Below, piece by piece: positions 132-34,262 of a DNA stretch of 34,262 bases. The notes beneath the pieces were generated by a model that was not told the origin of the DNA, did no database searches, and was given only the letters and a program-made list of their open reading frames with translations. The position numbers were made by a program, and so were the translations under genes. Source of the stretch: a virus. Within the stretch, counting starts at the first letter, position 1. Each line of letters opens with the position of its first letter. The DNA lies in IMG/VR virus record IMGVR_UViG_3300038701_000543. One strand, given 5' to 3'.

Positions 132-368
132 GTGCTGAAAACATCCACGCTGTCTGAGGCCGCCGCAATGCCCGCACCGCCACTACACCCCGCTGTCCTC
201 GCGCACATGCAATCGATGCAGGACGACCTGGCAGAAATGACCCAGGACCCGGACAGCACCGACCCCTACGAAGCCCTCGAGGTCGCGCTCCTGCTGCTCG
301 ATCTCTACGAGCGCATCCTCGAGCAGCAGGGTCTGTTTGTCATAGAGCGCGCAGAACAGGTGCACTGA
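132..368 (+). CDS. Small acidic hypothetical protein translationally coupled to terL (start uncertain: GTG 132, ATG 168 or ATG 207)
   Basis: 78-codon ORF. Its stop TGA (366-368) overlaps the terL ATG (368-370) as TGATG. Third codon positions are G/C-rich in the distal half. No convincing SD sequence. Confidence 0.55.
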   Translation: MLKTSTLSEAAAMPAPPLHPAVLAHMQSMQDDLAEMTQDPDSTDPYEALEVALLLLDLYERILEQQGLFVIERAEQVH

Positions 369-3012: not shown

Positions 3013-4634
3013 TGGCGAGTGTAGATCCGCTGGTTTCTCGTTTGGATCGCCGATATCGGGATCTGGCCAATGCGCGCACCAACTGGGAGAAGCACTGGCA
3101 GGAGCTGGCGGACTACATGCTGCCGCGCAAGGCGGACATCGTGAAGAAGCGCACGCAGGGCGACAAGCGCACCGAGCTGATTTACGATGGCACGGCGATT
3201 CATGCGGTGGAGCTTTTGGCGTCGTCTCTGCACGGGATGCTGACGTCGCCCAGCACGCCTTGGTTTTCGATGCGGTTCCGCGATCGGGACCTGCAGAACG
3301 ACGACGCGGCTAACGAGTGGCTCGAGGTCTGCATAGACCAGATGTACCAGGCGTTTCACCGCTCGAACTTCCAGCAGGAGGTGCACGAGCTGTACTTCGA
3401 CCTGGTCGTGTTCGGCACGGGTGCGATCTACGTCGAGGCTGCCGAGGACGGCGTTCGGTTTGGCACGCGCCACATTGCCGAGATCTCGATATCTGAGGAC
3501 GCCAACGGGCTGGTCGATACGGTTTATCGCAAGTTCAAGATGACGGCTCGTGCGATCGAGCAGCAGTTCGGGAAGGACAAGCTGCCGCCTGCCGTGCTGA
3601 AGGACGTCGAGAACAGCCCGTACACTGAGCATACGATTCTGCATGCGGTCTACCCCCGCAGCGACAAGCCTGGCCGCGTGGCGAACAAGAAGCGTGTTGC
3701 GTCGGTGTATTACCACATGGACAGCAAGGCGTTGCTGTCTGAGGGCGGGTTTGACGATTTCCCGTTCATGGTGCCGCGGTTCGTGAAGGACAGCGTGTCG
3801 GTGTACGGGCGCTCACCCGCCATGACCGCGTTGCCCGATGTGAAAATGCTTAACAAGATGAGCGAGGTCACGATCCGGGCGGCTCAGAAGCAGATCGACC
3901 CGCCGCTGATGGTCCCGGATGACGGGTTCATCATGCCGATCAGGACCACGCCTGGGTCGCTGAATTTCTATCGTGCGGGCACGCGCGATCGGATGGAACC
4001 GCTGAACATCGGCGCGAACAACCCGCTCGGGTTGAACATGGAGGAGCAGCGCCGCGCGGCGATCCGGCAGGCGTTCTACGTGGACCAGCTGTTGCTGGCG
4101 CAGGGTCAGACCATGACGGCGACCGAGGTGCTGCAGCGGAACGAAGAGAAGATGCGGCTGCTCGGTCCTGTTCTGGGTCGCCTGCAGTCCGAGATGCTGC
4201 AGCCGCTGATCTCTCGGGTGTTCGGCATCCTGCTGCGCAATGGCGTGCTGCCGCCTGCACCGGATGAGCTGCAGGGGCAGGACATCGAGATCGAGTATGT
4301 GTCGCCGCTTGCCAAGGCGCAGAAGCTGACGGACCTGCAGTCGATGCTGCGCGGCTTCGAGGTGATGATGCAGATCGCCGAGGTTGCCCCGGTGATGGAC
4401 TACTTGGACAGTGACAAGCTGGTGAAGTACCTGGTTGATACGACCGGGATCCCGGCGACGGTGATCAGGTCGGATGAAGAGGTCGCGCGGATGCGCCGGC
4501 AGGCTCAGCAGCAGCAGCAGCAGCAGAGCGAGCTGGAGACGCAGATGATGCAGGCCGAGGCGCTGGGCAGCGCGGCTCCGATGGTCAAGGCTCTGGGTGG
4601 CCCCCAGGCGCTTGAGGGGATTACCCAGGCATGA
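3012..4634 (+). CDS. Portal (head-to-tail connector) protein, T7 gp8-like
   Basis: 540 aa. The N-terminal segment ...WEKHWQELADYMLPRKADI...TELIYDGTAIHAVELLASSLHGMLTSPSTPWFSMRF is typical of podovirus head-tail connector proteins. It sits between terminase and scaffold and has a poly-Q tract near the C-terminus. Confidence 0.88.
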   Translation: MASVDPLVSRLDRRYRDLANARTNWEKHWQELADYMLPRKADIVKKRTQGDKRTELIYDGTAIHAVELLASSLHGMLTSPSTPWFSMRFRDRDLQNDDAANEWLEVCIDQMYQAFHRSNFQQEVHELYFDLVVFGTGAIYVEAAEDGVRFGTRHIAEISISEDANGLVDTVYRKFKMTARAIEQQFGKDKLPPAVLKDVENSPYTEHTILHAVYPRSDKPGRVANKKRVASVYYHMDSKALLSEGGFDDFPFMVPRFVKDSVSVYGRSPAMTALPDVKMLNKMSEVTIRAAQKQIDPPLMVPDDGFIMPIRTTPGSLNFYRAGTRDRMEPLNIGANNPLGLNMEEQRRAAIRQAFYVDQLLLAQGQTMTATEVLQRNEEKMRLLGPVLGRLQSEMLQPLISRVFGILLRNGVLPPAPDELQGQDIEIEYVSPLAKAQKLTDLQSMLRGFEVMMQIAEVAPVMDYLDSDKLVKYLVDTTGIPATVIRSDEEVARMRRQAQQQQQQQSELETQMMQAEALGSAAPMVKALGGPQALEGITQA

Positions 4635-26314: not shown

Positions 26315-26355
26315 GACTTCCTCCGGTGGGTGGTGGGGGCCGAAGGCCTCGGTTG

Positions 26356-26568
26356 TCAGGCAGCGTCGCGAAGCTGGATCGCTTTGCGTGCTTCGGCGCG
26401 CATTGCCTGCGCGTCCGGGCTTTTGGTGGTCCTGTGCATTTCCCACCAAACCTTTTCAAATTGCTCTGCTGCCCAAGTGTAGCAGCGCGCTGCCTCAGCG
26501 TAGTTTCCAGCGGCCATCGCGGCTTCTGCTTCTGCGCGGCGGGCGTTTCCTGCTTGAAGGTTGGTCAT
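26356..26568 (-). CDS. First gene of the leftward early operon, hypothetical helical protein
   Basis: 70 aa, ATG 26568 with SD ggaggaag (rc of cttcctcc at 26573-26580). Ala/Glu-rich. Confidence 0.7.
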   Translation of the reverse strand: MTNLQAGNARRAEAEAAMAAGNYAEAARCYTWAAEQFEKVWWEMHRTTKSPDAQAMRAEARKAIQLRDAA

Positions 26569-26689
26569 CTGTCTTCCTCCGGTGTGGGCTGCTGCCCGTT
26601 TGCTGATGACCCATACTCCTCATGGAGAGAGCGCGCAGTCAACAGGAAATCCGCTTGTCCGGAAGAAAACTTCGCGTAGGGTGTAGCCC
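26569..26689. promoter_or_regulatory. Divergent promoter/operator region between the early-left operon and the cro-like/replication operon
   Basis: 121-nt gap between back-to-back genes. Leftward candidate: TTGACT (rc of 26637-26642), N18, GAGTAT (rc of 26613-26618). Rightward candidate: TTGTCC (26655-26660), N16, TAGGGT (26677-26682). Both are weak matches. Confidence 0.5.
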
Positions 26690-28819: not shown

Positions 28820-30997
28820 ATGCAGTCGCCAGCCCAGCAAGCCGACCACGCGGAGGTCGTGAATTTCCTGCGCACCATCACAGACGGATGGGCCGAGATC
28901 GCAGACGAGCAGCCGCAGCTCGAGCTGCGCTGCATCGGGCTTAACGGATCCATCTCGGTCGCCAGGTTCAGCCACACAGCCGTCGAAGACGCCGCGCACC
29001 ACGCGGTCGAGATGAACCAGCACCACCAGAACGTCTACGCCTGCGTGAACCCGGTCAACCCGAGCGCTGATCGCCGCGGCGCCAAGGATGCCGACATCCT
29101 GGCCGCCTTTTTTTGCTTCGCCGACGCTGACAGCACCGACAGCATGGCCAACGTCACGGCATTCGCCGGTCCCAAGTTCACCATGAGCGTGCGCACCGGC
29201 ACGGTGCCGTATCTGCGCGGGCATGCGTACTGGCGGCTGGAAGAGCCGGTGCGCAACCTTGACGCCTGGCGTCAGGTGCAGAGAGACATTGCCGCCAGGC
29301 TGCAGACCGACAGCACCGTGGTGAACCCCAGCCGCATCATGCGCGTGGCAGGCACAATGTCCTGGCCGCCCGAGCGCAAGCGCATGAAGGGGTACGTGCC
29401 CGAGCTGGTCACCATGCGCACAGAGTTCTCGACCGATCGGGACCCGGTGCCGTTCGAGCGCATGATGCGCGCCTTCCCGGCAGACAGCGCAGCGCCCGGC
29501 ACCGGCCAAGGCGTCCAGATCGACCTCGGTCAGCAGGCCATGGACCGAGCGCTGGCCGAAGCCGACATCCTGGCAGGCAAGAACTGGCACCAAAACGTCG
29601 TGCGCCTGGTCGGATCATACGTCACCCGCGGCCTGACCGACGCAGAAATTCACGCCCTCACCGACCGGTTCACGATGGCCGGCTACACCGTCGAGGACAC
29701 CAGGCGCGAGGTGCAGACCGCCATCGACGGCGCCAGGGCCAAGGGCTGGACCCCGGCACCCGACCCGGCAGCCGAGCGCATGGCAGCGCAGGTCCCGGAA
29801 CAGGCCGCAGGAGCCGCTGAGAGCGCCGCTGACGGGCAGGTCGGGCAGGCGTGGCCGACACCCGTGCAGGCGTTCAACGCCGCCCTGCTGCCGCGCAGAC
29901 GCTGGGTCTACGACAACGTGTACATCCGCAGCTATCTGACGGTCACAGCATCGGCAGGCGGGATTGGCAAGACGTCCCTCGCACTGGCCGAAGCCATCGC
30001 GATCGCAACAGGGAAGCCGATCCTGCAGCGCCCGGTGCGCGAGCAGACAAACACATGGGTCATTAACCTCGAGGACCCCAGAGCAGAGATGCAGCTGCGT
30101 CTGGCATCCCTCATGCAGCACTACCAGATCAGCCACGCAGATCTGGCAGGCAGGCTCTTCATCGACGGGGAAGACGACATCCAGATCACCCTGGCTGCCG
30201 AGGGCAGAGACGGCGTCATCACGAACGACGCACTGCTCGAGCTGATGGCCACCAAGATCCGCGAACACAAAATCGGCTGCGTGATCGTGGACCCTTTCGT
30301 CAGCACTCACGCAGTCAACGAGAACTCCAACGTCCAGATCCAGATCGTCGTCGCCATGCTGCGCAAGCTGGCCCGCGACACCGACTGCGCCGTGCATCTG
30401 ATCCACCATGTGCGCAAGGGCAACGGCGAAGACGCCACCGTTGACAGCATCAGAGGCGCCAACGCCCTGATCGGGGCGGCGCGAGCGGCCAGGGTCATCA
30501 ACCGCGTGAGCATCGACGACGCCATGCGCCTTGGCATCGAGGAAGAGCAGGCGTCTGGCCTGTTTCGCATTGACGATGCAAAGGCCAACCTGGCAGCGCC
30601 GGCAGACAAGGCGCTCCACATGCGCACGATCGGCGTCGAGATCGCCAACGGCGAGTGGATCGGGACGGTGGTGCCAGTGCAGCTGCCCGACCTGTTCGAC
30701 GGCATCACCGCGCAGCAAACCATTCAGGTGCAGCGCGTCGTGGCCGAGGCCGAGCGCAGCAACGAGCCGCTGCGCGACAACGTGCAGGCAAAGCAGTGGG
30801 TCGGGCACGCGATCGGCGAGGTCCTCAGCATCGATACGACCGAGAAGCACGGCAAGGCGCGCGTCAGCGGCATGGTCAAGCAGTGGGTCAAAACCGGGGT
30901 GCTGAAGGTAGAGCGGGTGTACGACAAGAAGCACAGCCGAGAGATCGGCACGGTCGTCGTGGGCAAAATGATCACCCGAGAGGAGGCTGGGTTGTGA
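28820..30997 (+). CDS. Primase-polymerase (AEP-type) fused to a RepA/DnaB-like P-loop helicase
   Basis: 725 aa. N-terminal half: NVYACVNPV, FCFADADS (DxD), RGHAYWRL (xGxH), IMRVAGT. C-terminal half: Walker A SAGGIGKTS, Walker B CVIVDPF, and HHVRKG. Confidence 0.82.
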   Translation: MQSPAQQADHAEVVNFLRTITDGWAEIADEQPQLELRCIGLNGSISVARFSHTAVEDAAHHAVEMNQHHQNVYACVNPVNPSADRRGAKDADILAAFFCFADADSTDSMANVTAFAGPKFTMSVRTGTVPYLRGHAYWRLEEPVRNLDAWRQVQRDIAARLQTDSTVVNPSRIMRVAGTMSWPPERKRMKGYVPELVTMRTEFSTDRDPVPFERMMRAFPADSAAPGTGQGVQIDLGQQAMDRALAEADILAGKNWHQNVVRLVGSYVTRGLTDAEIHALTDRFTMAGYTVEDTRREVQTAIDGARAKGWTPAPDPAAERMAAQVPEQAAGAAESAADGQVGQAWPTPVQAFNAALLPRRRWVYDNVYIRSYLTVTASAGGIGKTSLALAEAIAIATGKPILQRPVREQTNTWVINLEDPRAEMQLRLASLMQHYQISHADLAGRLFIDGEDDIQITLAAEGRDGVITNDALLELMATKIREHKIGCVIVDPFVSTHAVNENSNVQIQIVVAMLRKLARDTDCAVHLIHHVRKGNGEDATVDSIRGANALIGAARAARVINRVSIDDAMRLGIEEEQASGLFRIDDAKANLAAPADKALHMRTIGVEIANGEWIGTVVPVQLPDLFDGITAQQTIQVQRVVAEAERSNEPLRDNVQAKQWVGHAIGEVLSIDTTEKHGKARVSGMVKQWVKTGVLKVERVYDKKHSREIGTVVVGKMITREEAGL

Positions 30998-31902
30998 CAG
31001 CGTACTACAACGAGATCGACCCGAAAGCCGCAGCATGGCTGCGCGAACTGATCAAGCAGGGACACATTGCACCGGGAGAGGTAGATGAAACCGACATCAG
31101 AGACGTGGATCCAGATCGACTGGGTCGATACACTCAATGCCACTTCTTCGCAGGCATCGGCGGATGGAGCCTCGCCCTGCGCCTCGCAGGATGGCCAGAC
31201 AGCCGTCCTGTTTGGACGGGATCCTGCCCGTGCCAGCCGTTCAGCGCGGCAGGCCGAAGAGCAGGGACTGCTGACGAGCGGCACCTCTGGCCGCACTGGC
31301 ACCACCTCATCAGCCAGTGCCAGCCTGCAGTCGTATTTGGCGAACAAGTTGCAAGCAAAGACGGCCTCGGCTGGCTCGACCTTGTACAAGCTGACATGGA
31401 AGCAACGGGATACGCCGTCGCAGCTCAAGATATCTGCGCTGCGGGCGTCGGTGCGCCGCACATCAGACAACGCCTCTGGTTCGTCGGGCTGGCCGACGCC
31501 AAGCAGCCGGGATTGGAAAGACAGCCCCGGCATGGCGACGGCAGGCACCAACCCGGACGGCTCGACGCGAACGCGGCTGGATCAGTTGCCGAGGCAAGCA
31601 TCTCTAGCAGCGTGGACGACCGAGGACGGCCCGACCCGACGAACGGTCGCTGGCGCGATGCTGACTGGCTCTTCTGCCGAGATGGAAAGTGGCGGCCAGT
31701 TGAACCCTCGGTTCAGCGGATGGTTGATGGGTTATCCAACGATCTGGTGCGAGGCGGCGCTATCGTCTCAGCAGCCTACCCGCTCGCGAAAAACCAAGAG
31801 CGGCGGGTAATGCGACTGCGCGGCTACGGCAATGCCATCGTCCCGCAAGTCGCAGCCGCGTGGATCGAAGCCGTGATCGAGTACGAAAGAGAGCAGCCAT
31901 GA
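30994..31902 (+). CDS. DNA (cytosine-5) methyltransferase
   Basis: 302 aa from GTG 30994 (GTGA overlap with the primase stop; aggagg 8 nt upstream). Motif I FFAGIGG, IV PCQPFSAAG, VI-like VFGEQV, VIII GAPHIRQRLWF, X GYGNAIVPQ. Confidence 0.85.
   Translation: MTAYYNEIDPKAAAWLRELIKQGHIAPGEVDETDIRDVDPDRLGRYTQCHFFAGIGGWSLALRLAGWPDSRPVWTGSCPCQPFSAAGRRAGTADERHLWPHWHHLISQCQPAVVFGEQVASKDGLGWLDLVQADMEATGYAVAAQDICAAGVGAPHIRQRLWFVGLADAKQPGLERQPRHGDGRHQPGRLDANAAGSVAEASISSSVDDRGRPDPTNGRWRDADWLFCRDGKWRPVEPSVQRMVDGLSNDLVRGGAIVSAAYPLAKNQERRVMRLRGYGNAIVPQVAAAWIEAVIEYEREQP
31085..31810 (+). CDS. Nested +1-frame ORF inside the methyltransferase gene, with WPTP / LNPxFxxWLMGYP motifs
   Basis: 241 codons, with ATG 31085 preceded by gggagagg. 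Contains ...STLYKLTWKQRDTPSQLKISALRASVRRTSDN..GWPTPSSRDWKD...RLDQLPRQA...LNPRFSGWLMGYPTIW. G/C third positions are 133/180 versus 119/180 for the methylase frame over 31261-31800 (hand count). Confidence 0.45.
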   Translation: MKPTSETWIQIDWVDTLNATSSQASADGASPCASQDGQTAVLFGRDPARASRSARQAEEQGLLTSGTSGRTGTTSSASASLQSYLANKLQAKTASAGSTLYKLTWKQRDTPSQLKISALRASVRRTSDNASGSSGWPTPSSRDWKDSPGMATAGTNPDGSTRTRLDQLPRQASLAAWTTEDGPTRRTVAGAMLTGSSAEMESGGQLNPRFSGWLMGYPTIWCEAALSSQQPTRSRKTKSGG

Positions 31903-32020
31903 CCCCCGAATACCCCGTGCCCACCTTGGTGGGGAACAGGTGGGCAAGGTGGGGAAATGCCGCCGAAAGCAAGCGGGCGCGACGCACGTGACATGGCGCA
32001 AACAAGGCAAGAAGGCACAA

Positions 32021-32080
32021 AAAAACCGCCCATCGGGCGGCTGCTTCTCGGGGTTTCCCCACCTTGTTTGTTGAAGTCCT
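32021..32080 (-). ncRNA. Candidate ~60-nt small RNA transcribed leftward within the non-coding hub
   Basis: Bounded by the promoter at 32085-32113 (-) and the terminator at 32026-32040 plus T7. Predicted RNA: AGGACUUCAACAAACAAGGUGGGGAAACCCCGAGAAGCAGCCGCCCGAUGGGCGGUUUUUUU. Confidence 0.35.
32026..32040 (-). terminator. Intrinsic terminator oriented for the minus strand
   Basis: ccgccc-atc-gggcgg (6 GC pairs), preceded on the plus strand by A7 (32019-32025). This gives stem+UUUUUUU on the minus strand. Confidence 0.55.
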
Positions 32081-32084
32081 CCGG

Positions 32085-32113
32085 ACTTTACCAAGTGGTG
32101 GGCAACCCGTCAA
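32085..32113 (-). promoter_or_regulatory. Sigma70-type promoter on the minus strand
   Basis: TTGACG (rc of 32108-32113), exact 17-nt spacer, TAAAGT (rc of 32085-32090). Confidence 0.45.
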
Positions 32114-32196
32114 CCCCCCCCGAAAAAGGCGGGGAAGCACCTAAAAGGAGTTGGCACCCAAGGCTGCCAACACACCTTTTGTTTTCGGTGCCTCTT

Positions 32197-32252
32197 CCCC
32201 ACCCCACCCCCTCGCTTCGCTCGCCCCTGGCGGGGGTAGGGGTGGGGTGGGG
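32197..32252 (+). other. 14-bp perfect hairpin (C-arm/G-arm); the G-arm region is a canonical G-quadruplex motif
   Basis: ccccaccccacccc (32197-32210) is the exact reverse complement of ggggtggggtgggg (32239-32252). 32232-32252 reads GGGGG-TA-GGGG-T-GGGG-T-GGGG. It is followed by the hairpin ggaccg-gcacgt-cggtcc plus ttt (32251-32271). Confidence 0.8.
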
Positions 32253-32283
32253 ACCGGCACGTCGGTCCTTTGGACCAATCAAA

Positions 32284-32312
32284 TTGAAGCAAAGGTCTGT
32301 GTCGGCTAAGAT
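32284..32312 (+). promoter_or_regulatory. Candidate sigma70-type promoter for the rightward late operon
   Basis: TTGAAG (32284-32289), 17-nt spacer, TAAGAT (32307-32312). A leader hairpin ggagggcg (32319-32326) / cgccctcc (32342-32349) lies downstream, then SD taggagg. Confidence 0.4.
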
Positions 32313-32379
32313 GAAGTTGGAGGGCGCGCTGCGCCAACAGCCGCCCTCCTGATCGCAACCTAAAGCCTAGGAGGTCGCA

Positions 32380-32673
32380 ATGACCAGCAATCTATCCAGC
32401 CGCTATCTCGACGGCAACATGCACCCGGCAGACGCACTCGCCGAAGTGCGCCAGCAAATGGCAGAGTTGAAAAAGATTGAAGCCGAGCTGCGCGAACAGA
32501 TCCTCTCGGATGTGTCCGGTCGGTCCGGGCAGATGTACAAAGCCGAGGTCGTGTTGTCCGCCCAGCGCCGCATCGACCCGGCAGCCGTGGCAGAGCTGAT
32601 CGGTGACATGGAGAAGGTCAAAAAATCTTTTGATGTCACGTTTGTCCTGCTGAAAAAAATTGAGGTGGAGTGA
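32380..32673 (+). CDS. Hypothetical protein (first gene after the hub)
   Basis: 97 aa, with strong SD taggagg 5 nt upstream and a coiled-coil-like centre. Confidence 0.7.
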   Translation: MTSNLSSRYLDGNMHPADALAEVRQQMAELKKIEAELREQILSDVSGRSGQMYKAEVVLSAQRRIDPAAVAELIGDMEKVKKSFDVTFVLLKKIEVE

Positions 32674-33257
32674 TGACAGCCAAGCGACCACAGAAACCGA
32701 AGCGAGAACGCAAGGCCGATCGGATCCTGCACTCGGGGGTCTCGGCCAGAGAGATCATGTGCGACTACGGGCTGGCACCGTTCGACCGCATGGCCGTGGA
32801 GATGGATCGGAAATGGGGCGTCGATATGCTCGTCGAGCTGGTGACGCCCGAGATGGCCGAGCGCTACGGCAGCGCCATGGCCAAGCTCAATGCCGCGATC
32901 GAACAAGGGGATCCTGAGCAGGTCAAGGTCAGGGCTGCTGTGTGCATCAGAGGTATGCAGGCAATGGACCAGGCAGCCACGGAGGCGGGCGCCAGACCGG
33001 CGAGCGAGGATGTGTGGCTCGTGCAGGCGGACGGGCAGGAGTTCGGGCTGCTGCGCGACGCCAGAGCCTGGCAGAGGGTGCAGGAGAAGTATCCCGGCCT
33101 GCGGCTGGTGTCGGAGAGAGAGATGGTGCTGGCCCTCGAGGTGTACCGGCAGTCGAAAATGGGCCAAATGGTCGAGGCGGTGAAAAGTAGTTTTCCGCAA
33201 GCCGACATGGTAAAAGTAGGGGGCAAGAGTCTCGAGGATGAGATTCCATTCGGGTGA
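32673..33257 (+). CDS. Hypothetical protein
   Basis: 194 aa from ATG 32673 (TGATG coupling; GTG 32670 is an alternative). Basic N-terminus KRPQKPKRERK. Confidence 0.7.
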   Translation: MTAKRPQKPKRERKADRILHSGVSAREIMCDYGLAPFDRMAVEMDRKWGVDMLVELVTPEMAERYGSAMAKLNAAIEQGDPEQVKVRAAVCIRGMQAMDQAATEAGARPASEDVWLVQADGQEFGLLRDARAWQRVQEKYPGLRLVSEREMVLALEVYRQSKMGQMVEAVKSSFPQADMVKVGGKSLEDEIPFG

Positions 33258-33998: not shown

Positions 33999-34135
33999 GG
34001 CGTGTCGTCCTGTATATCGCACACGCTGCTGCTCCAGCTACGCGCGGGTGCAGCCACCTGTCGGCCCGAGATGCTGGGGCACCCCCGCCCGGCACAAGAT
34101 GTTGTGTTGGCGCCCCGGATTCTGGGCGTCAATCG

Positions 34136-34262
34136 GCTAAGCCTTTGATATCCCTATGTTTGAGAGTTAACATAATGGGTATTCTCGGACAACATGCCCG
34201 AATTTCCGGGGCCGCCACCCCCACCCTCGCCCAAACCGCCCGCCACTTCCTACTGCGATATG
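34136..34262. repeat. Terminal direct repeat, right copy (identical to 1..127)
   Basis: Exact copy of bases 1-127. It is either a true DTR or an assembly overlap of a circular or circularly permuted genome. Confidence 0.97.

Follow-up and report, generated by a model that had tools for sequence, protein, structure and literature searches.

The locus examined here raises the question of what a cluster of short repeats is doing in a stretch of DNA that holds no genes. It lies at positions 31903-32379 of IMG/VR virus record IMGVR_UViG_3300038701_000543, the genome of a podovirus of about 34.1 kb and 62% GC, and the whole of this 34,262-nucleotide record is referred to below as the window; it is a circular assembly, bases 1-127 being repeated at 34136-34262. 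The original prediction, made from this one sequence, regarded the 477-nt gap as a single hub between the replication and late operons, either an origin or a regulatory centre. We consider it likely that the segment 31920-32254 is the phage replication origin, an array of iterons read by the phage's own primase-helicase. Comparison of related genomes shows that array and layout alike have been kept throughout the phage family and that the array sequence co-varies with two residues of a winged-helix domain in that protein.

The repeat unit is best written as GGTGGGG(AA), not as CCCACCTTG, and there are about 11 copies within the 335 nt of 31920-32254. The copies that had been listed are for the most part where they were said to be: CCCACCTTG on the plus strand at 31920-31928 and 32058-32066, the CCCACC-TT-GGTGGG palindrome at 31920-31933, and GGTGGG at 31939-31944 and 32097-32102. 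The long arms are perfect over 15 nt (32196-32210 against 32239-32253), and the reverse-complement copy is present as well, with CAAGGTGGG at 31945-31953, one nucleotide to the left of the 31946-31954 assigned to it. Exact CAAGGTGGG occurs three times in 34 kb, always inside the same 150 nt of the gap. Seven of the nine distinct genome copies of GGTGGGG are in the gap, against a whole-genome expectation of 5.2 +/- 2.3, and so are 8 of the 15 matches to GGTGGGGAA with at most one mismatch (all in 31928-32254) and all four of its exact copies. The cluster is far denser than the rest of the genome, as in origins of the iteron type.

That the gap is gene-free is borne out by flat GC content across the codon positions of the open reading frames (ORFs) inside it (0.62/0.58/0.64), real genes having 0.71-0.9 at third positions (GC3), and by a 1-nt indel that breaks the longest of these ORFs in L001, a genome 98% identical to the window. 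A hidden gene in the gap (ORFs of 131, 126 and 82 aa) was rejected on the strength of the flat composition and, for one of them, of the indel.

The array is by no means peculiar to this phage. More than 100 related uncultivated phage contigs have a matching layout between the primase-helicase gene and a conserved gene for a 195-aa protein, and in 64 related viral contigs the backbone runs from primase-helicase through spacer and 195-aa gene to the small terminase (TerS) and the large terminase (TerL). The spacer measures 158-209 nt in most contigs and is longer only where extra genes have been inserted. It opens with a single inverted repeat, then three direct ones at intervals of about 10 nt and a stretch of some 20 nt, and closes with a palindrome of two to three inverted and two to three direct repeats around a short (C)TATA(G), followed by two to four direct repeats. 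Opposed iteron sets flank a more easily melted centre in the window (32066-32094; 32211-32232) and in the relatives (CCC-T(A/T)TA-GGG) alike. The array is intergenic in all lineages and adjoins the initiator gene on its downstream side, beginning 2 nt past the primase-helicase stop codon in L001. The original prediction had placed the repeats next to the primase-helicase gene, which is correct for the conserved array; in the window itself a 0.9-kb C5-methylase cassette intervenes.

Relatives carry 8-12 copies, and within 13-18 kb the unit is essentially confined to the one array. The unit itself varies by lineage, the forms being GGTGGGG, GGTGAGG, GGTGTGG, GGTGCGG, ACTGTGG, AGTGTGG, TGTAGAAA, GTATGAAA, TTTGTAG and TGTCTGG, and the arrays of close relatives align column by column, with a single base changed simultaneously throughout the units. 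All relatives whose sequence could be read carry an array of the shared layout, the unit being particular to the lineage.

Two observations on these arrays deserve a place here. Public gene calls put 53- and 55-aa 'genes' exactly on the arrays of L075 (4687-4848) and L176 (5154-5321); these are probably annotation artefacts, and annotators should be aware that gene callers set spurious small ORFs on iteron arrays. Contigs from Paracoccaceae, Cypionkella, Seohaeicola, Novosphingobium and Bradyrhizobium (L166-L174) have related primase-helicase genes followed by iteron arrays of their own, with a CCCTTTAGGG-type palindrome, and the size of some alphaproteobacterial contigs (0.19-0.62 Mb) suggests integrated elements or plasmids with a matching replicon type.

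The primase-helicase combines an N-terminal PrimPol-like domain of the archaeo-eukaryotic primase (AEP) type, a RepA/DnaB-type helicase (AAA_25, Pfam match 5e-39) and a C-terminal winged helix; profile comparison with the PDB yields RSF1010 RepA (1g8y, E 1e-11) and a PrimPol AEP domain (6zp9, E 3e-4). The winged helix spans residues ~631-714 (nt ~30710-30961), with Gln656 encoded at nt 30785-30787 and His705, at the tip of the wing, at nt 30932-30934. AlphaFold gave no usable model of the C-terminus from the single sequence (pLDDT 39) and was rerun with a 47-sequence alignment, from which residues 545-725 are modelled at pLDDT 82 in an H-H-H-beta-beta topology with residue 705 at the wing tip; the best PDB matches returned by Foldseek are winged-helix domains. 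Neither a DNA polymerase nor any initiator other than the primase-helicase was found in the early module.

It is covariation that ties this protein to the array. For units of the form GTG-N-GG we asked which alignment columns are partitioned by N, the fifth base of the iteron. Residue 705 is the sole fully partitioned column among the 818 of the primase-helicase, none of the 199 columns of the 195-aa protein is partitioned, and TerS has a single such column, in its C-terminal tail and without chemical logic. A strict three-class column test had at first found nothing, because T-class lineages use several residues, and it was replaced by partition and mutual-information tests; metagenome and genome scans added about 95 loci. 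Among 80 distinct C-terminal sequences the mutual-information ratio (MI/H) is 0.88 at residue 705 and at most 0.58 elsewhere, neighbours 5-6 residues away included. Other adequately sampled early proteins reach 0.76 at most, and values from families with n<35 are uninformative, the background there reaching 0.8-1.0. Asp goes with C in 13 of 13 cases, Gln with A in 18 of 20 and Ser, Ala, Thr or Leu with T in all 38, and Lys-rich wings pair with G. Permutation at the level of 85% clusters never reached the observed association in 100,000 trials, and in a tree from which the wing had been masked the 705 states are interspersed, with at least four sister contrasts, such as the window (G), L002 (T) and L082 (A), and L003 (A) and L010 (T) at >85% identity.

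Residue 656 relates in a similar way to bases 1-2 of the iteron: Gln is found with GG (34/34) and Arg with AC or AG (44/44), or 78/78 together. It is the only fully partitioned column for these bases, sister contrasts are again present, and seven of the eight combinations of the 705 and 656 sites occur. Of five predictions written in advance, three held in newly fetched contigs (Asp-C, Gln-A, Lys-G), and four additional genome-derived loci agree with the residue-base rule. Where the C-terminal domain is a different one the repeats are unrelated (TGTAGAAA, GTATGAAA, TGTCTGG, TGGCGCA), and these domain-swap lineages include elements in Novosphingobium, Bradyrhizobium and Cypionkella genomes. The match between residue and repeat also persists across 0.3-1.65 kb of inserted genes between gene and array. 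By computation, then, the structural model, the covariation and the domain swaps all point to an initiator DNA-binding domain that matches its own iterons, and it is the origin alternative of the original prediction that gains from a family-wide array tied to the primase-helicase and covarying with two winged-helix residues. TerS and the 195-aa protein were also considered as repeat-binding partners and were rejected, their sequences not tracking repeat identity.

The features of the locus are as follows, in window coordinates and with the strand given where there is one.

28820..30997, plus strand: primase-helicase gene, the proposed initiator (Pfam AAA_25, PDB profile, AlphaFold model).
30994..31902, plus strand: inserted cassette encoding a C5 cytosine DNA methyltransferase (Pfam DNA_methylase, PHROG 363).
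31920..31956: iteron block I, an inverted CCCACC (31920-31925) and then three direct copies, GGTGGGGAA at 31928, GGTGGGCAA at 31939 and GGTGGGGAA at 31948, at intervals of 11 and 9 nt.
31958..32048, minus strand: insert present in the window and L001 only, with an intrinsic terminator that reads leftward (its stem at 32042..32024, followed on the minus strand by a T7 run).
32049..32108: central imperfect palindrome, inverted TTCCCCACC at 32055-32063 and direct GGTGGGCAA at 32097-32105.
32085..32113, minus strand: putative leftward sigma-70-like promoter, TTGACG-17-TAAAGT, TG-extended (promoter scan, 1 site against 0.1 expected).
32109..32136, plus strand: GTCAAC, a C8 run and the degenerate iteron GGCGGGGAA (32128-32136).
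32140..32190: bidirectional intrinsic terminator, an A-tract, the stem GTTGGCA/TGCCAAC (32150-32171) and then TTTTGTTTT.
32195..32254: second palindrome, two inverted and two direct iterons, CCCCACCCCACC / GGTGGGGTGGGG, around CCCCCTCGCTTCGCTCGCCCCTGGCGGGG.
32284..32379, plus strand: candidate sigma-70-type promoter and leader of the 97-aa gene, TTGAAG-17-TAAGAT at 32284-32312, hairpin at 32319-32349 and Shine-Dalgarno sequence GGAGG at 32370-32374.
32380..32673, plus strand: 97-aa gene, the cargo of an inserted cassette.
32670..33257, plus strand: conserved 195-aa gene, which follows the array in every lineage.

Block I and the first blocks of L176, L079, L082 and L003 are collinear, the units differing at the fifth base only. 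In place of the insert at 31958..32048, L049 and L074 have about 18-20 nt; the terminator within it is the minus-strand terminator noted previously, which our scan recovers at 32042..32024 together with its T-run. The central palindrome is the positional counterpart of the CCC-T(A/T)TA-GGG palindrome of most relatives. Its centre, GAAGTCCTCCGGACTTTAC, is common to the window and L007, and its middle (32066-32094) is poorer in GC, at 43%, than the genome as a whole (62%). Past the palindrome, GTCAA and then a C-run are found again in L074, L078 and L007. The bidirectional terminator (-17.4 kcal/mol) was found by the minus-strand scan, its plus-strand T-tract being read from the sequence, and its stem (32150-32171) has two compensatory pair changes in L074 (T:A to C:G and A:T to T:A). 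The hairpin of the second palindrome, folded as single-stranded DNA, has z = -4.3. In L074 the centre of this palindrome shows one substitution (TGGCG versus TTGCG) with the core CCTCGCTTCGCTCGCCCC exact, and the outer arms bear L074's own repeat, GCCGCAC/TGCGGC; L007 has an analogous palindrome with the flanks CCTCAC/GTGAGG.

Two oppositely oriented promoters had been proposed in the gap. The minus-strand site (32113..32085) is found by the scan and has TTGACA-17-TAAAGT at the matching place in L007; the plus-strand site scores 8/12 and falls under the scan threshold, yet it is positionally conserved, TTGnnn-17-TAnnAn being kept in four of five lineages. From the leftward promoter and the terminator at 32042..32024 an RNA of about 60 nt (32078 to 32017) can be inferred, which with a fold z of -1.2 would not be unusually structured, and a structured small RNA was rejected as a reading of it for that reason. 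One may speculate that a leftward promoter inside the origin serves transcriptional activation or a short RNA. We also note that GGGGGTAGGGGTGGGGTGGGG at 32232-32252 (plus strand), found too at 2462-2486 of L049, has the four G-runs of a canonical G-quadruplex motif, its C-rich partner lying at 32197-32211; because other lineages cannot form one, it is a by-product of this lineage's GGTGGGG unit and probably not the function that is conserved.

The window's copy of the array is composite, the methylase and the 97-aa gene being cassettes inserted into an older, compact element. This follows from two close relatives. L001 is without the methylase, with a junction at 30998|31919, and L049 (96% identical) keeps the methylase and the first repeat block and has in place of window 31958-32671, the rest of the gap with the 97-aa gene, about 100 nt made of CCCCACC/GGTGGGG repeats around a CCCTATAGGGG palindrome. 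The methylase has a GC3 of 0.66, against 0.71-0.9 in neighbouring genes. Its presence or absence (window 30994-31902; L001 4036-4042) is a polymorphism among genomes 96-98% identical, and in L008, L011, L012, L075 and L176 it lies instead upstream of the primase-helicase.

The 97-aa gene is absent from L049 and most relatives, and its position relative to the array differs in L078 and L007; its product has no domain in Pfam or PHROG and is represented by 12 protein clusters only. The leader of about 65 nt in front of it is 89-94% identical across lineages, the encoded proteins just 22-63%. It is found at 32319-32386 in the window, 2795-2863 in L074, 3615-3681 in L078, 5960-6023 in L007 and 721-756 in L131, and is made up of a hairpin, GGAGGGCG...CGCCCTCC, followed by TGATCGCAACCTAAA..GGAGGTCGCAATGACC, with a single compensatory change (A:U to G:C) in the stem of the hairpin. 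To judge from these alignments, the leader is a cis element under strong constraint, carried by a mobile small-gene cassette. An anti-Shine-Dalgarno switch in it was rejected, as neither L007 nor L131 preserves the pairing of CCUCC with GGAGG. Positions 32140-32379 are then the terminator, second palindrome, promoter and conserved leader of the 97-aa cassette, and the idea of the gap as one hub has to be narrowed, about half of its 477 nt being the upstream part of an inserted gene rather than origin.

The spacer between the primase-helicase and the 195-aa gene is an insertion hotspot, with cassettes lying between the initiator gene and the array or within the array; examples are L002, L077, L081 (PAPS-reductase-like), L085, L110 and L134 (small genes), among others. 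The array itself stays intact and mostly abuts the 195-aa gene. An origin at this place would explain the hotspot.

The 195-aa protein has no match in Pfam, PHROG or the PDB, and is highly conserved even among lineages with unrelated repeats. It ends in DDEIPF (33237-33254; consensus LDDEIPF), which is also the motif of the C-terminal tip of bacterial single-stranded DNA-binding protein (SSB), the tip that recruits replisome partners. It may be a replication accessory protein rather than a late-gene product, and because it is encoded by the first gene downstream, the boundary with a late operon is less sharp than had been thought.

As to the phage itself, Pfam and PHROG identify a T7-type portal, a large terminase, an Sf6-like small terminase, the primase-helicase and the C5 DNA methylase. 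Identity of the portal with its counterparts in HTVC010P-type pelagiphages is 59%, a DNA similarity search against sequenced phages matched the methylase gene only, and for the primase-helicase there is no close relative in sequenced phages, nor one in culture. Hits in Paracoccaceae and Rhodobacteraceae, together with the 62% GC, hint at a Rhodobacterales host. The gap was described as by far the largest gene-free stretch of the genome, which overstates the case: a second stretch of about 375 nt, at 26315-26689 where minus-strand and plus-strand early genes diverge, looks non-coding too, with flat codon-position GC. It contains GGTGGGTGGTGGGGG (26326-26340), one of just two GGTGGGG sites outside the array, the other being at 84-90, identical with 34219-34225 through the circular overlap. 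The interval between TerS and TerL, 504 nt across the circular junction (window 132-368 and 33999-34135), likely holds a small gene at 132-368 (GC1/2/3 = 0.76/0.35/0.76), whose sole homologue found is in L001.

We propose that the array works in the following way. The winged helix at the C-terminus of the primase-helicase would bind the roughly 11 GGTGGGG(AA) iterons, direct and inverted, around the two palindromes, and opposed sets of bound protein would assemble on both sides of a palindromic, easier-melting centre. The polypeptide would then load itself as the replicative helicase, of RepA/DnaB type, and the AEP domain of the loaded protein would prime. Since no phage-encoded polymerase was found, the primers would be extended by a host polymerase.

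Several points weigh against this reading. Binding, melting, initiation, helicase loading and priming are all steps that we infer from sequence, and the protein bound at the iterons could be mainly a transcriptional regulator rather than an initiator. The window's array is atypical, having a 90-nt insert, a methylase cassette between gene and array, and a centre other than the near-universal CCC-T(A/T)TA-GGG, so that its activity could differ from that of the compact relatives. The Foldseek matches of the modelled domain to winged helices are weak (E ~0.01, TM 0.3-0.5). GC skew carries no clear origin signal: its cumulative minimum is near 30.0-30.5 kb and the skew follows gene strand, a confounding for which it was rejected as an origin marker.

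Not every lineage obeys the covariation. With His or Arg at 705 the base is G in some cases and T in others, and because of this ambiguity two of the five predictions failed (His-G and Arg-G, in L075 and L079); a simple one-to-one code was accordingly rejected. L113 and L114 have Gln705 with a heterogeneous array of mostly G units, which at 1336-1520 and 3544-3730, respectively, mixes GGTGGGG, one CCTCACC, GGTGTGG and GGTAAGG, and could be an array caught in transition. Co-inheritance by linkage moreover inflates the association to some degree, since the winged-helix codons are near the array in the ancestral arrangement. That there is functional coupling beyond linkage is argued by a signal that peaks at single residues and survives separation by 0.3-1.65 kb, and by two sites that track two positions independently.

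The alternative that survives best, and which we nonetheless regard as unlikely, is that the repeats are operators for the primase-helicase or another phage DNA-binding protein at the early/late boundary, repressing or insulating the 195-aa and packaging genes or serving autoregulation, with replication starting elsewhere. Winged-helix proteins at iterons often autoregulate too, as is established for plasmid Rep proteins, and in compact relatives 10-20 nt separate the last repeats from the ribosome-binding site that follows for the 195-aa gene. The terminators and promoters that the window also has in this region belong, however, to an inserted cassette missing from most relatives, and the 158-209-nt spacers of minimal relatives are nearly all repeats, with no evident terminator. 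There is a single cluster per genome segment (13-18 kb of relatives), other promoters being without copies, and 8-12 sites in opposed sets around a palindrome are origin-like. Finally, the protein that covaries is the primase-helicase, which has no other means of finding a start site, and the other well-sampled proteins track the repeats less well. The suggestion that a helix-turn-helix protein acts on the repeats to control a middle-to-late switch finds no support in these comparisons.

It is very improbable, in our view, that small non-coding RNAs are the main product of the region, whether the leftward one of about 60 nt (32078-32017) or the long hairpin at 32196-32253, with the repeats as structural parts of the RNA. 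The minus-strand promoter-like site with its terminator, the great stability of the hairpin and the two compensatory changes in the 32150-32171 stem could be read in this way. A tRNA scan and an Rfam 15 search at the gathering score found nothing in the whole window, though, and a permissive Rfam search gave weak microRNA-precursor-like noise on the long hairpin only; the leftward RNA folds no better than its shuffled versions (z = -1.2), and the insert bearing its terminator is missing from L049 and L074. Orientation and spacing of the repeats are conserved on the DNA while their sequence changes in concert, and protein sites therefore fit better than RNA pairing.

We give slightly less credence still to the array being a pac site for the Sf6-like small terminase, whose gene lies some 1.1 kb further downstream. 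The array does lie upstream of the packaging genes, and repeat arrays are known at cos and pac sites such as lambda cosB and SPP1 pac. The N-terminal DNA-binding region of TerS, on the other hand, does not follow repeat identity: the TerS of L077 (GGTGAGG) is nearly identical to that of ACTGTGG lineages (T class), that of L082 (A class) resembles the window's (G class), and that of L057 is 69% identical to the window's, with a close 195-aa protein and unrelated repeats. Even the most repeat-linked TerS column has residues common to different repeat classes. Least credible of all is that the repeats are functionless recombination debris, slippage products and scars at a hotspot where methylase, PAPS-reductase-like, HNH and small-gene cassettes have inserted in various relatives, since layout, copy number and spacing are kept though the primase-helicases are 43-60% identical, even in elements of bacterial genomes, and concerted change in all units is matched by changes in the protein.

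If an origin with its initiator is the right reading, it provides a concrete candidate for the widespread and almost entirely uncultivated marine podoviruses of ~35 kb, whose structural genes are similar to those of HTVC010P-type pelagiphages; the papers that we searched describe no origin for this group. The initiator-iteron pairs form a series with all four bases at one position, two states at another and nearly every combination, and so are a system for studying how origin specificity changes while a protein and some ten DNA sites stay matched. We further put forward, with our confidence evenly divided, that this is a modular protein-DNA code in which residue 705 sets base 5 and residue 656 bases 1-2, so that single substitutions with concerted change of ~10 repeats create orthogonal origin-initiator pairs and replication 'incompatibility types' among co-infecting marine phages, the origin doubling as a hotspot for cassette insertion. 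Its scope may be the phage family and the related elements in alphaproteobacterial genomes.

By analogy, the element probably belongs to a known kind, an iteron origin with a self-loading primase-helicase, functionally like P4 alpha/ori or SaPI Rep/ori. The likeness would be one of function without membership in the P4, SaPI or pRN1 protein families, because the helicase core is of RepA/DnaB type and not of superfamily 3 (SF3): it is AAA_25/DnaB_C-like rather than SF3/AAA+, and its best solved relative is RSF1010 RepA (1g8y). The gp-alpha protein of P4 unites in one polypeptide a primase, a helicase and, at the C-terminus, a winged helix that binds the origin (its structure is PDB 1KA8); it recognizes repeated octamers (type I iterons), direct and inverted. 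A one-polypeptide initiator and opposed iterons are what we propose for the phage; P4 has an SF3 helicase and needs two separate sites in cis, ori and crr, whereas the phage has a single array in the DNA examined, and 1KA8 was not among the Foldseek matches of its C-terminal domain. RSF1010 and the IncQ plasmids have a RepA helicase, a RepB' primase and a RepC iteron-binding initiator, with 20-bp iterons. RepA is homologous to the phage helicase domain (E 1e-11) and both origins are of the iteron type, but IncQ has on three proteins the activities that the phage apparently has on one, whose units are of 7-9 bp.

The layout of the array matches the origins described for the pathogenicity islands of S. 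aureus (SaPIs), where the iterons directly follow rep and stand in opposed sets around an AT-rich centre, and where Rep ends in a winged helix (PMC9371898). The SaPIs have a self-loading initiator-helicase such as we propose for the phage, in the form of Pri/Rep or the primase-fused PriRep5 of SaPI5; its winged helix recognizes short iterons, 6-12 of them just behind the gene, in opposed sets that flank an easier-melting centre and with element-specific specificity (PMC9371898). They differ in that SaPI Rep is an SF3/MCM-like AAA+ helicase, to which the phage protein has no detectable sequence similarity, and in being satellite elements with a long AT tract at the centre, where the marine podovirus has a GC-flanked palindrome (CCC-TATA-GGG in relatives). 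ORF904 of pRN1 joins prim-pol, helicase and winged-helix DNA-binding domains, with the origin downstream of the gene (PMC4234260, PMC2777425). This AEP prim-pol-helicase fusion with the required cis element just downstream is like that of the phage; pRN1, however, is a plasmid of archaea, its helicase is of the SF3 type, and its origin is described as a stem-loop region, in place of an iteron array. With lambda O and ori-lambda the phage would share an initiator specificity matched to iterons, in lineage-specific pairs among lambdoid phages, and the transcriptional activation known at ori-lambda (PMC7466680) has a possible echo in the window's leftward promoter; the lambda iterons are inside the O gene, and O is not a helicase and recruits host DnaB through P, whereas the phage array is intergenic. 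The kind of element is therefore already known from these systems, and the new part is the natural series that relates initiator residues to iteron bases.

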